Source of the DNA: Laetmonice hystrix
Lineage: Eukaryota
DNA: 64,000 bases
Reading direction: 5' to 3'
NCBI GenBank assembly: GCA_965235115.1
Contig: OZ249436.1
Location: forward strand, 744,001-808,000
In this document: one piece after another, positions 25,360-62,446 of the stretch
Layout of the letters: each line of letters opens with the position of its first letter
Numbering within the stretch: position 1 is the stretch's first letter
Made by a program: the position numbers and the translations under genes
The notes under the pieces: generated by a model
The model's database searches: none
What the model saw: only the letters and a program-made list of their open reading frames with translations
Told to the model about the DNA's origin: nothing

Positions 25360-26610
25360 GCTGTTTGCAGGTCCACCCCGAGAACTCCAACTGGTGGAGA
25401 GTGGTAGGCAAGGTTTATTCACCCTACTACCTGTCGCTGTTTGCAGGTCCACCCCGACAACTCCAACTGGTGGAGAGTGGTAGGCAAGGTTTATTCACCC
25501 TACTACCTGTCGCTGTTTGCAGGTCCACCCCGACAACTCCAACTGGTGGAGAGTGGTAGGCAAGGTTTATTCACCCTACTACCTGTCGCTGTTTGCAGGT
25601 CCACCCCGACAACTCCAACTGGTGGAGAGTGGTAGGCAAGGTTTATTCACCCTACTACCTGTCGCTGTTTGCAGGTCCACCCCGAGAACTCCAACTGGTG
25701 GAGAGTGGTAGGCAAGGTTTATTCACCCTACTACCTGTCGCTGTTTGCAGGTCCACCCCGACAACTCCAACTGGTGGAGAGTGGTAGGCAAGGTTTATTC
25801 ACCCTACTACCTGTCGCTGTTTGCAGGTCCACCCTGACAACTCCAACTGGTGGAGAGTGGTAGGCAAGGTTTATTCACCCTACTACCTGTCGCTGTTTGC
25901 AGGTCCACCCCGACAACTCCAACTGGTGGAGAGTGGTAGGCAAGGTTTATTCACCCTACTACCTGTCGCTGTTTGCAGGTCCACCCCGACAACTCCAACT
26001 GGTGGAGAGTGGTAGGCAAGGTTTATTCACCCTACTACCTGTCGCTGTTTGCAGGTCCACCCTGACAACTCCAACTGGTGGAGAGTGGTAGGCAAGGTTT
26101 ATTCACCCTACTACCTGTCGCTGTTTGCAGGTCCACCCCGACAACTCCAACTGGTGGAGAGTGGTAGGCAAGGTTTATTCACCCTACTACCTGTCGCTGT
26201 TTGCAGGTCCACCCCGACAACTCCAACTGGTGGAGAGTGGTAGGCAAGGTTTATTCACCCTACTACCTGTCGCTGTTTGCAGGTCCACCCTGACAACTCC
26301 AACTGGTGGAGAGTGGTAGGCAAGGTTTATTCACCCTACTACCTGTCGCTGTTTGCAGGTCCACCCCGACAACTCCAACTGGTGGAGAGTGGTAGGCAAG
26401 GTTTATTCACCCTACTACCTGTCGCTGTTTGCAGGTCCACCCCGACAACTCCAACTGGTGGAGAGTGGTAGGCAAGGTTTATTCACCCTACTACCTGTCG
26501 CTGTTTGCAGGTCCACCCCGACAACTCCAACTGGTGGAGAGTGGTAGGCAAGGTTTATTCACCCTACTACCTGTCGCTGTTTGCAGGTCCACCCCGACAA
26601 CTCCAACTGG
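25360..26610 (+). repeat. 76-bp tandem array spanning the exon 4 acceptor, 17 acceptor copies
   Basis: gctgtttgcag|gtccaccccgacaactccaactgg with the AG ending at 25370 + 76n up to 26586. Confidence 0.97.
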
Positions 26611-26715
26611 ACGTGTTTTGAACAGGACGCCAGTCTCGACATCAAGTCCTTCTTTGGGTTCGAGAGTACAGTCGAGAAGATTGCTATGAAACAATACACG
26701 GCCAACATCAAAAAG
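26587..26715 (+). CDS. SEC14L1: Coding exon 4 ([13 protein letters not shown]...TANIKK)
   Basis: ttgcag|GTC ... AAG|gtgagt; 129 nt; acceptor is the last copy of a 76-bp array. Confidence 0.93.
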
Positions 26716-27081
26716 GTGAGTTCCGGGAGGAGGATGTTAAGAATCCCATGTTCTGTCTACCTCCTTCATCTCTCCGTGATTGCTATGAAACAATACAACA
26801 TTAAAAAGGTGAGTTACGGGAGGAGGATGTTCTGTCTGCCTCCTTCATCTCTCCGTCATTCTCCAGTTGTTCGAGGATTGAAACATGGGTAATTATGTCT
26901 CCCCTCATTTGAAAGTGTTGATCGGACTCAACTTTTTGTGCAATTTTTGTGCAGTGTTTATTAAAGTTGCATCAAAAGAAACGCCAGCGAAATTAAGAAC
27001 AATGGTGACGAAGGAGATGCTTCTTTATGGCGTTAAGAAGTGGTATAAATTCATGAGTTGTTTGGCAAACTCTGGACAAGC

Positions 27082-27657
27082 CTGTTCTCCACGGTGCCTG
27101 CTGGAGGTACAAATTCTGCTCCAGTATGTACATTATTGTCTGTTCTCCACGGTGCCTGCTGGAGGTACAAATTCTCCTCCAGTATGTACATTATTGTCTG
27201 TTCTCCACGGTGCCTGCTGGAGGTACAAATTCTGCTCCAGTATGTACATTATTGTCTGTTCTCCACGGTGCCTGCTGGAGGTAAACATTCTCCTCCAGTA
27301 TGTACATTATTGTCTGTTCTGCACGGTGCCTGCTGGAGGTACAAATTCTGCTCCAGTATGTACATTATTGTCTGTTCTCCACGGTGCCTGCTGGAGGTAC
27401 AAATTCTGCTCCAGTATGTACATTATTGTCTGTTCTCCACGGTGCCTGCTGGAGGTACAAATTCTGCTCCAGTATGTACATTATTGTCTGTTCTCCACGG
27501 TGCCTGCTGGAGGTAAAAATTCTGCTCCAGTATGTACATTATTGTCTGTTCTCCACGGTGCCTGCTGGAGGTACAAATTCTGCTCCAGTATGTACATTAT
27601 TGTCTGTTCTCCACGGTGCCTGCTGGAGGTAAACATTCTCCTCCAGTATGTACATTC
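27082..27657. repeat. 58-bp tandem array, 10 copies
   Basis: ctgttctccacggtgcctgctggaggtacaaattctgctccagtatgtacattattgt. Confidence 0.95.
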
Positions 27658-27893
27658 TCGAGGTGGACTCAGCGTGAAGTCCCGGGGGTTTAAGTAAATG
27701 TCACAGGTTAGGTTGTCTTACCGGCGGCTGGTCGACCGGCGGGCCGATATCCATCTGCTGCCGGTGGGAGGGCGAGTCAGTGGCCGGTATTATAATAACT
27801 GTACAGGTGCTCCTAACCAGTGTTCCTAACTGGTTTATCAAAGGCCCGGCGTGTAACGCTATGTCTGTGCAGTCTCTATACCCTCCCACTCAG

Positions 27894-59528: not shown

Positions 59529-59803
59529 CTCAGACAACCCAATCTGTTAATGGTGCTGGGTCACCGCCAGGGGTCACCCCCAGGGGTTACCGCCAGGGGG
59601 CGCTCCTGACCGGAGCCCAGGTGTGGGAACCCGCTGGAAGCAGTGGGGAGGGGGGGGGGGGGGGTGCCAGGAAGAGCTCCCTCTACCGGCATAAACTATC
59701 AAAGGATGCTAGGTAAACAGGGATAGGAGTCGTTTCGACTTTGAGAATCTCTATTCCCATTCGTGTTTTGTTCTAAACATGAGGACGTGATGGTTTGTTG
59801 CAG

Positions 59804-59874
59804 GTACTGGCTGTGAACGAAGAAGGCCTGCGGAGGTGTGAAGAGGCGACAAAACTGAGGGGATATCCAGTTAC
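59804..59874 (+). CDS. SEC14L1: Coding exon 9 (VLAVNEEGLRRCEEATKLRGYPVT); absent from the ORF track
   Basis: ttgcag|GTA ... AC|gtaagt; 71 nt. Confidence 0.93.
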
Positions 59875-60190
59875 GTAAGTCTTTCCTCTATCTCACCTTG
59901 AGCCCTTCTCACCGAGTTCTCAGTACGCGGGACTGTAAATATTGGTAGTTATAAATATCGATAGTTATAAAGTGGCCATAAATTTTGGTATTTCTAGATG
60001 TTATTAGATCCCCTGGAAGAGGGGAATTTTTCAGTTTTACAGGTAATCCTAGATTAGGGATTATTATAGATTATAAATGCCTTTTGAAATGTTGCATTGA
60101 TTGTGAATTATTGACGAGTCTGGCCACCTAGCGGTGTAAATGTGTACTGAGGACTGTTAAACATGCCTGCTGTGTTCGTCCCTCCTCCAG

Positions 60191-60497
60191 GAACTGTACG
60201 TGTATCGTTGACCTAGAAGGTCTGAGCATGCGCCATCTCTGGCGTCCCGGAATCCGAGCCTTACTCCGGATTATCGAGGTGGTGGAGGCCAACTATCCGG
60301 AGACAATGGGTTTCCTGCTCATTGTCCGCGCTCCCCGAGTCTTCCCGGTCCTCTGGACTCTAGTCAGTCCGTTCATTGATGAAGACACCCGCAAAAAGTT
60401 CCTCATCTATGGCGGCAAGGACTACCAGGGAACAGGCGGCCTCATCGACTACATCGAGGAACAGTTTATCCCGGATTTCCTCGGCGGAGATTGTTAT
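60191..60497 (+). CDS. SEC14L1: Coding exon 10 ([20 protein letters not shown]...FLGGDCY), CRAL-TRIO core
   Basis: ctccag|G ... TAT|gtaagt; 307 nt. Confidence 0.96.
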
Positions 60498-62446
60498 GTA
60501 AGTCGCGAAGTACTTGCTCACAGATAGGTTATGTAAGTCGCGAAGTACTTGCTCACAGATAGGTTATGTAAGTCGTGAAGTACTTGCTCACAGATAGGTT
60601 ATGTAAGTCGTGAAGTACTTGCTCACAGATAGGTTATGTAAGTCGTGAAGTACTTGCTCACAGATAGGTTATGTAAGTCGTGAAGTACTTGCTCACAGAT
60701 AGGTTATGTAAGTCGTGAAGTACTTGCTCACAGATAGGTTATGTAAGTCGTGAAGTACTTGCTCACAGATAGGTTATGTAAGTCGTGAAGTACTTGCTCA
60801 CAGATAGGTTATGTAAGTTGTGAAGTACTTGCTCACAGATAGGTTATGTAAGTTGTGAAGTACTTGCTCACAGATAGGTTATGTAAGTCGTGAAGTACTT
60901 GCTCACAGATAGGTTATGTAACTCGTGAAGTACTTGCTCACAGATAGGTTATGTAAGTCGCGAAGTACTTGCTCACAGATAGGTTATGTAAGTCGCGAAG
61001 TACTTGCTCACAGATAGGTTATGTAAGTCGTGAAGTACTTGCTCATGGATAGGTTATGTAAGTCGTGGAGTACTTGCTCACAGATAGGTTATGTAAGTCA
61101 TGAAGTACTTGCTCACAGATAGGTTATGTAAGTAGGTTATGTAAGTCGTGAAGTACTTGCTCACAGGCAGGTTATGTAAGTTGTGAAGTACTTGCTCACA
61201 GGCAGGTTATGTAAGTTGTGAAGTACTTGCTCACAGGCAGGTTATGTAAGTTGTGAAGTACTTGCTCACAGATAGGTTATGTAAGTCGTGAAGTACTTGC
61301 TCACAGATAGGTTATGTAAGTCGTGAAGTACTTGCTCACAGATAGGTTATGTAAGTCGTGAAGTACTTGCTCACAGATAGGTTATGTAAGTTGTGAAGTA
61401 CTTGCTCACAGATAGGTTATGTAAGTCGTGAAGTACTTGCTCACAGATAGGTTATGTAAGTCGTGAAGTACTTGCTCACAGATAGGTTATGTAAGTCGTG
61501 AAGTACTTGCTCATGGATAGGTTATGTAAGTCGTGAAGTACTTGCTCACAGATAGGTTATGTAAGTCGTGAAGTACTTGCTCACAGATAGGTTATGTAAG
61601 TCGTGAAGTACTTGCTCACAGATAGGTTATGTAAGTCGTGAAGTACTTGCTCACAGATAGGTTATGTAAGTTGTGAAGTACTTGCTCACAGATAGGTTAT
61701 GTAAGTCGTGAAGTACTTGCTCACAGATAGGTTATGTAAGTCGTGAAGTACTTGCTCACAGATAGGTTATGTAAGTCGTGAAGTACTTGCTCATGGATAG
61801 GTTATGTAAGTCGTGAAGTACTTGCTCACAGATAGGTTATGTAAGTCGTGAAGTACTTGCTCACAGATAGGTTATGTAAGTCGCGAAGTACTTGCTCACA
61901 GATAGGTTATGTAAGTCGTGAAGTACTTGCTCATGGATAGGTTATGTAAGTCGTGAAGTACTTGCTCACAGATAGGTTATGTAAGTCGTGAAGTACTTGC
62001 TCACAGATAGGTTATGTAAGTGGTGAAGTACTTGCTCACAGATAGGTTATGTAAGTCGTGAAGTACTTGCTCACAGATAGGTTATGTAAGTCGTGAAGTA
62101 CTTGCTCACAGATAGGTTATGTAAGTGGTGAAGTACTTGCTCACAGATAGGTTATGTAAGTCGTGAAGTACTTGCTCACAGATAGGTTATGTAAGTCATG
62201 AAGTACTTGCTCACAGATAGGTTATGTAAGTCGTGAAGTACTTGCTCACGGATAGGTTATGTAAGTCGTGAAGTACTTGCTCATGGATAGGTTATGTAAG
62301 TCGTGAAGTACTTGCTCACAGATAGGTTATGTAAGTCGTGAAGTACTTGCTCACAGATAGGTTATGTAAGTCGTGAAGTACTTGCTCACAGATAGGTTAT
62401 GTAAGTAGGTTATGTAAGTCGTAAAGTACTTGCTCACACATAGGTT
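60493..62446 (+). repeat. 35-bp tandem array spanning the exon 10 donor, ~55 copies
   Basis: gttat|gtaagtcgtgaagtacttgctcacagatag. Confidence 0.97.

Follow-up and report, generated by a model that had tools for sequence, protein, structure and literature searches.

The window analysed here, a stretch of 64,000 nucleotides (nt) of DNA from Laetmonice hystrix, comprises positions 744,001 to 808,000 of the 73.8-Mb contig OZ249436.1 and lies 744–808 kb from the telomere. On its forward strand, at 12947–63873, it holds exons 1–13 of a gene of the SEC14-like 1/5 (retm) type in which, out of 24 splice sites in the complete introns, six are tandemly reiterated and the other 18 occur only once in the gene span.

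The gene and its repeated splice sites

The gene model is built on tblastn segments, splice flanks, an open joined frame and Pfam matches. Exons 1–4 lie at 12947–13009, 13406–13555, 13845–13976 and 26587–26715, exons 5–8 at 49591–49870, 53039–53157, 53620–53809 and 57735–57823, and exons 9–13 at 59804–59874, 60191–60497, 62675–62821, 63280–63525 and 63731–63873; the final exon or exons, past exon 13, fall outside the window. All 12 complete introns have GT-AG ends. With exon borders set at the tblastn segments, the joined frame of exons 1–13 is open over 688 codons and aligns in 13 collinear segments with five full-length SEC14-like 1/5 homologues (two from nemerteans and one each from an annelid, a bivalve and a gastropod), which bears out the intact and conserved frame noted in a preliminary description of the letters alone. 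In Pfam scans of single exons, with all matches above curated cut-offs, PRELI is spread over exons 2–4 (profile positions 6–53, 55–98 and 99–142), CRAL_TRIO_N lies on exon 7 and CRAL_TRIO on exon 10. The scan of exons 12–13 gave no Pfam match, and the GOLD part was recognised by homologue alignment only. Judged by its sequence the gene is a SEC14-like 1/5 gene, predicted to encode a lipid-transfer protein with PRELI, CRAL-TRIO and GOLD parts in the domain order of its orthologues. At E ≤ 1e-5 the CRAL-TRIO exon matches the 627-Mb genome at a single place, and no clean paralogue was found elsewhere at this threshold, so that the animal appears to have no spare copy of the gene. Exon 5 is variable, its best protein matches being gastropod sequences of about 50% identity (6 hits). 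No cephalochordate protein was among the matches of the two protein searches, one for SEC14-like homologues and one for exon 5. By these matches the animal is most likely a lophotrochozoan with no near relative among annotated species.

The most regular of the repeats on the acceptor side surrounds the start of exon 4 (true site 26586|26587). Tandem Repeats Finder (TRF) places this array, on the forward strand like the other five junction repeats, at 25360–26610, with 16.5 copies of a 76-nt unit that consists of the last 52 nt of the intron and the first 24 nt of the exon. The motif TTGCAG|GTC is exact in 17 of 17 copies, the spacing is 76 nt in 16 of 16 intervals, and 16 decoys lie upstream of the true site. 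Each unit also carries GTG|GTAGGC 33 nt past the decoy acceptor, so that a 33-nt in-frame 'exon' and, behind it, a 43-nt GT..AG interval can be read from the unit; GTAGGC is at the same time the true donor word of exon 5. At the donor of exon 4 (true site 26715|26716) the repeat at 26679–26856 is a two-copy duplication with a decoy donor at 26809. The two copies occupy 26679–26777 (99 nt, including the last 37 nt of the exon) and 26778–26856 (79 nt), and TRF makes no call here even at a score of 30. The second repeated acceptor, that of exon 5 (true site 49590|49591), closes a degenerate array at 49340–49590 which TRF calls with periods of 27, 35 and 125. This array stops flush at the AG, its unit is devoid of exon bases, and its nine T[GT]ACAG sites comprise eight decoys and the true acceptor.

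Three further arrays multiply donor sites. The array of exon 7 (true site 53809|53810) extends over 53781–57018 (TRF, 63 nt x 52), its 52 units of 63 or 60 nt being composed of the last 29 nt of the exon and the start of the intron; AGG|GTAAGT is exact in 51 of the 52 units, and the decoy GGGTAAGT donors number 50–51. For exon 8 (true site 57823|57824) the array was delimited by motif to 57818–58692. The corresponding TRF call, 57843–58692, starts later because the first unit has diverged. Seven exact copies of CAT|GTAAGT, the true one included, recur here with a period of 111–120 nt, and each unit contains about 6 nt of exon. Note that ACTTAC, the exact complement of GTAAGT, is found about 45 nt past each donor of this array (57824–58692), that the true unit has an additional ACTTAC 7 nt past its donor, and that the predicted openness of all exon 8 donors is very low. 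The array of exon 10 (true site 60497|60498) covers 60493–62419 and has 55–57 units of 35 nt, each made of the last 5 nt of the exon and 30 nt of the intron. TAT|GTAAGT occurs 56 times exactly and 57 times with at most one mismatch, which corresponds to 55–56 decoys.

In 14 of the 15 possible pairings of the six units there is no 9-mer in common, and the sole common word is the donor motif itself; the units are unrelated, and the arrays are therefore attributed to independent events. Exon and intron sequence are joined in the unit at five of the six junctions, the exon 5 acceptor with its flush array being the one that differs, and the overlap of the units with the exons amounts to 0, 5, about 6, 24, 29 and 37 nt. 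The units are short, as in minisatellites of this type (about 10–160 bp), and lie head to tail, with two copies only at the exon 4 donor, and exact splice 9-mers are reiterated 17, 51, 7 and 56 times. According to TRF the arrays are 93–99% alike throughout, and the decoys nearest to the true sites are intact, not disabled. The preliminary description had named the same six of 24 sites, had stated that most copies keep the exact splice motif and had taken the unrelated units as a sign of independent events, and on all of this we concur; in the large arrays we count 17/17, 51/52 and 56 exact copies. Its copy counts likewise stand for the exon 4 acceptor (17), the exon 4 donor (2), the exon 5 acceptor (9) and the exon 7 donor (given as about 52, here 51–52); for exon 8 we count 7 (given as about 8) and for exon 10 56–57 (given as about 55).

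The other 26 tandem arrays identified by TRF in the gene fill introns 3–5 and 7–11 (13977–63279). Half of intron 4 is occupied by a single 11.7-kb array at 29354–41074, in which a 56-nt unit is present 215 times with a higher-order period of 219 nt.

Repeat load of the region and junction overlap against chance

Tandem repeats make up 65% of the window (43 merged TRF arrays, 41,726 of 64,000 bases). Beyond the window we studied 243 kb of sequence, including 100 kb on each side, which together with the window form a 264-kb region, and four 10-kb mid-chromosome samples. Tandem repeats account for 58% of the 264-kb region, as compared to 0.2%, 0.3%, 6.6% and 16.9% of the mid-chromosome samples of four chromosomes. 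The contig begins with (CCTAAC)x282, the TTAGGG telomere repeat on the other strand, followed by a 145-nt satellite, and TTAGGG-type hexamers are enriched 4.4–5.5-fold in the repeat units of the 264-kb region. Within the window, a 44-nt unit at 20746–21682 is composed of TTAGGG-like words. As the array load is high near the telomere and low at mid-chromosome, it tracks chromosome position rather than transcription of the gene.

The overlap of arrays with splice junctions was compared with a null model of the kind suggested in the preliminary description, in which each array was collapsed to one unit, reducing the introns from 48,861 to 14,895 nt, and units of the observed lengths were then dropped randomly, with placements inside an exon or swallowing an exon forbidden. 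The set consisted of the 32 arrays of the gene, and the two-copy exon 4 donor duplication stood outside it. Three arrays span a junction on TRF coordinates, four when the exon 8 array is added by motif and five when the flush exon 5 array is counted as well. With uniform placement 2.38 of the 32 arrays are expected to span a junction (P 0.43 for at least three, 0.22 for at least four and 0.085 for at least five), and with each unit kept in its own intron 3.35 are expected (P 0.72 for at least three and 0.21 for at least five). For arrays that span a junction or come within 20 nt of one, six were observed and 3.43–4.84 expected, with P values of 0.12–0.33. The collapsed introns 7, 8, 10 and 11 measure 182, 440, 285 and 155 nt, and it is because they are so short that a unit of 35–116 nt frequently reaches an intron end.

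Only four of the 24 junction-adjacent intron flanks of 20 nt lie wholly inside arrays, as opposed to 72.7% of the gene's intron bases taken together, so that the junctions are not favoured places in a naive sense. The extent to which the units reach into the exons varies between 0 and 37 nt, and the breakpoints are therefore not keyed to the junction. Furthermore, as the gene was selected for its pattern, no P value survives this selection. An excess of junction-spanning arrays over chance is not shown, and the idea put forward in the preliminary description, that the birth of repeats is biased to junctions, finds no backing in the array-collapsed shuffle of this gene (3–5 observed, 2.4–3.35 expected, P 0.085–0.72). 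The caveats given in that description, namely that some overlap is expected by chance and that the exon-proximal position of the true site is a geometric necessity, carry most weight. The comparison shows that, given the local repeat load, the pile-up in one gene does not call for any special mechanism. No genome-wide test for an enrichment of boundary-spanning minisatellites turned up in a literature search, which is not proof that there is none.

No second gene model was obtained for an unbiased replicate: among the 150 longest unique open frames of the 264-kb region, 115 gave only two weak matches, to fn3 and PP28, below the Pfam cut-offs, and the remaining 35, which overlapped the gene or one another, were dropped. 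A forward-strand open frame of 285 codons at 4963–6433, with three PPxY-type motifs and no Pfam match, probably represents the terminal exon of a different gene. This frame contains in-frame coding repeats, of 9 nt at 5749–5777 (poly-Ala) and of 12 nt at 6204–6292, and an array of 29 copies of a 21-nt unit stops 16 nt short of its likely acceptor at 5609|5610. Outside the window, at 717956–720055 of the contig, lies a low-complexity open frame of 700 codons without Pfam match, with a Cys-rich stretch and a hydrophobic segment at its end.

Origin of the arrays and choice of the splice site

We favour, with a probability of about 0.75, the explanation that the arrays are neutral subtelomeric minisatellites of a repeat-saturated domain, some of which happened to be seeded across an exon-intron boundary in the manner of the amphioxus 'mirages' and the human F7 repeat, and that they are functionless and tolerated, with splicing at the exon-proximal copy. 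The setting is a region that is 58–65% tandem repeat, in which 32 arrays have inflated the introns of the gene about three-fold. Given this number of arrays, and ancestral introns that measured no more than some 150–450 nt in the gene's 3' half, a few straddling units would be expected, in agreement with the chance model. Short tandem duplications would arise anywhere in the domain and those within exons would be purged, while straddling duplications would survive because one copy stays joined to the exon body and the extras fall on the intron side. Going by published work on other genes, the spliceosome would then take the exon-proximal copy, the first donor or the last acceptor in a repeated series, by way of exon definition or of a selection oriented from 5' to 3', and the rare products of decoy use would carry early stops and be cleared. 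Strict choice of the exon-proximal site with removal of faulty products was the other possibility raised in the preliminary description; it is the behaviour that experiments demonstrated in human F7 and that has been reported for amphioxus mirages (PMC1557585, PMC3087553).

The reading frame is consistent with such a choice. The six repeated sites have about 137 decoys in total, and for 136 of the 137 simple use leads to a premature stop, in line with the stops or frameshifts that the preliminary description had met in simple exon extensions. The exception is the second exon 4 donor, which adds 93 nt (26716–26808) or 31 residues in frame and without a stop; by frame, this copy would be the only decoy able to yield a protein isoform. 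As evidenced by the frame and the homologue alignment, the exon-proximal copies alone would give the conserved protein: the positions of the PRELI profile run 98|99 over exons 3|4, and the homologue alignments are contiguous over exons 7|8 and 10|11. Recursive splicing, which calls for an acceptor AG abutting a strong donor so that a 5' site is restored and no bases are added, was considered and rejected. The exon 10 unit reads TAG|GTTATGTAAGT; GTTATG, the site that would be restored there, is weak, and a strong GTAAGT comes 5 nt later and shifts the frame. In the units of exon 7 and exon 8 the donor lacks an AG|GT.

Several points weigh against the neutral explanation. The observed count of spanning arrays lies toward the high side of the null, and if the exon 4 donor duplication is added the comparison becomes 6 observed against 2.4 expected with P 0.027, an unfair figure as this class of duplication is not in the null. 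That the exon-proximal copies are those used at this locus is something we infer, and a scan from 5' to 3' would meet 16 fully equipped decoy acceptors of exon 4 before reaching the true site. All 16 have the 52 upstream bases of the true site, so that the choice would have to depend on exon sequence beyond +24 or on pairing with the exon 4 donor. According to the Discussion of PMC1557585, an early experiment of another group, made with a duplication, had shown the preference reversed. The last point comes from a splice-word test that was free of annotation and compared 146 minisatellites (period of at least 10, at least 3 copies; 7,668 unit bases) with 111,925 unique bases, using anagrams as controls. 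The rationale is that an origin of arrays at donors should leave donor words at a higher density in the units than in unique DNA, and GTAAGT was indeed 3.2 times denser in the units (10 in 7,668 bases), ranking 2nd of 90 anagram controls.

This enrichment, together with the count of five spanning arrays against 2.4–3.35 expected (P 0.085–0.21), speaks for the alternative that minisatellites preferentially arise at exon-intron boundaries through a mechanism coupled to transcription or splicing, or that they persist there since the boundary unit is shielded by selection on the exon and could seed the array anew once it has contracted. The finding of mirages in several amphioxus genes, termed possibly general in PMC3087553, points in the same direction. 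The test itself, however, is equivocal. Over the 264 kb neither GTGAGT (0.96-fold, rank 49 of 60) nor GTAGGT (1.4-fold, rank 36 of 60) was enriched in units, AGGTAAGT and AGGTGAGT were absent from units, and three of four acceptor words were not enriched. At least two of the GTAAGT-bearing arrays are the gene's own, and the flanks of the six GTAAGT arrays that lie off its junctions, five outside the gene and one in intron 3, contained no evident exon when inspected by eye and without a homology test. The outcome of the splice-word test is mixed and its power low. Considering also that the gene was picked for its pattern, that the unit ends lie 0–37 nt within the exons and not at the junction, and that array density tracks the distance from the telomere, we regard a preference for boundaries as unlikely. 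There is in the same way a small probability that exon-intron boundaries are true minisatellite hot spots in this animal, perhaps even in marine invertebrates rich in minisatellites generally, where the boundary unit could not be lost and arrays would be re-seeded repeatedly. In that case new micro-exons and introns could be drawn from the stacked complete decoys, the 33-nt 'exon' of the exon 4 acceptor unit being an example.

A second alternative holds that the arrays are functional, in that the decoys divert a share of transcripts that depends on copy number to unproductive splicing, or load U1 along the introns, and that array length thereby tunes expression, an idea also raised in the preliminary description. 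The intact decoys (17/17, 51/52 and 56 exact copies) and the early stops that follow from 136 of 137 decoys are what it would call for. The 26 other arrays of the gene have no part in splicing and look no different, and as the arrays are 93–99% alike the intact motifs need no selection. In the published cases, moreover, decoys are mostly or wholly silent (PMC1557585), and a function of this kind seems distinctly improbable.

It is very improbable that the decoys are hidden by RNA structure with the true sites left open. The exon 8 and exon 10 units do carry words complementary to GTAAGT, but such words occur at the true sites too, and local unpaired probabilities give the true sites no advantage, their predicted openness ranking 39th of 51 for exon 7, 6th of 56 for exon 10 and 2nd of 7 for exon 8, with the exon 4 acceptor uninformative.

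The arrays were also followed in contigs from three DNA runs over the part 25800–27700; these runs are of one sample, possibly that of the assembly itself, and their contigs collapse arrays. There the 76-nt unit of the exon 4 acceptor reaches a depth of 192–449, compared to 41–57 in neighbouring unique contigs (4.7–9-fold), and the contigs support multi-copy arrays, though not exact copy numbers. In contigs of two of the runs, collapsed and from the one sample, a joint 26777>26679 represents a perfect 99-nt repeat junction that is missing from the assembly and has 3–4 times the unique depth, a possible sign that the other haplotype carries additional or altered copies of the exon 4 donor duplication. 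Long perfect arrays are difficult to assemble and the copy numbers derive from the assembly alone, but with such a depth in the three runs, and with the exon 4 donor duplication appearing as a joint in their contigs, it is hardly credible that the arrays were made or inflated by the assembler.

The locus is a natural competition experiment for splice-site choice in a conserved single-copy gene, with up to 56 identical strong donors after a true one and 16 complete acceptors before a true one. The acceptor array is the more informative, since a simple scan from 5' to 3' would choose the wrong copy. RNA from the species would directly read out how strict the exon-proximal choice is and what share of the products is cleared as faulty.

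Comparison with known systems

Minisatellites cluster subtelomerically, and the domain described here conforms to this rule in that arrays are dense within the first Mb from the telomere and sparse in the four samples from mid-chromosome. It differs in degree, with an unusual 58–65% of the sequence in arrays, which extend even into the introns of a gene that is conserved and single-copy. The founding paper on amphioxus mirages is reportedly that of Canestro et al. 2002 (Nucleic Acids Res 30:2871).

The amphioxus cases concern Adh3, troponin C, the globins BflGb6 and BflGb9, and PGBD5. Mirages lie there at both 5' and 3' boundaries and contain AG or GT signals, and splicing is normal as judged by reverse transcription PCR (PMC3087553, PMC3902484). 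As in the gene studied here, the units consist of an exon end and the adjoining intron end, both sides of the boundary are affected, AG or GT is reiterated, several mirages are possible per gene, and homogenisation is weaker at the edges of an array than inside it. The differences are that up to 57 copies are present here, compared to 3–6 in the globin mirages, that the animal is a different one, and that normal splicing and length instability are features of the amphioxus mirages.

The closest parallel on the donor side is intron 7 (IVS7) of human F7, where 5–9 copies of a 37-bp monomer are present, the first copy reaches across the end of exon 7 and splicing is confined to the most upstream donor (PMC1557585, Borensztajn et al. 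2006). The 4–8 identical pseudo-sites are disregarded, and the upstream choice was demonstrated with 50 constructs. IFI6 (6-16), CBS, LMNB2 and PDGF are listed there as having the same arrangement, with 25 pseudo-sites in IFI6; in IFI6 and CBS the two nearest pseudo-sites are used too, and in LMNB2 and PDGF the authentic site alone. The likeness to F7 extends from the order of the sites, an authentic donor followed by identical pseudo-sites, to the composition of the unit, with 5 exon bases per 35-nt unit at exon 10 here and 4 per 37 in F7. In contrast, the F7-type cases are donor-side and one per gene, while the gene described here has, by our count, four donor-side and two acceptor-side repeats, and splicing at the most upstream donor, shown experimentally for F7, is here proposed by analogy. 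To a phenomenon known from amphioxus and man the locus adds a striking multi-array example from an animal apparently outside the chordates. Boundary-spanning minisatellites as such have already been described; what is notable here is that six repeats come together in one gene, and that their copy numbers exceed those published.

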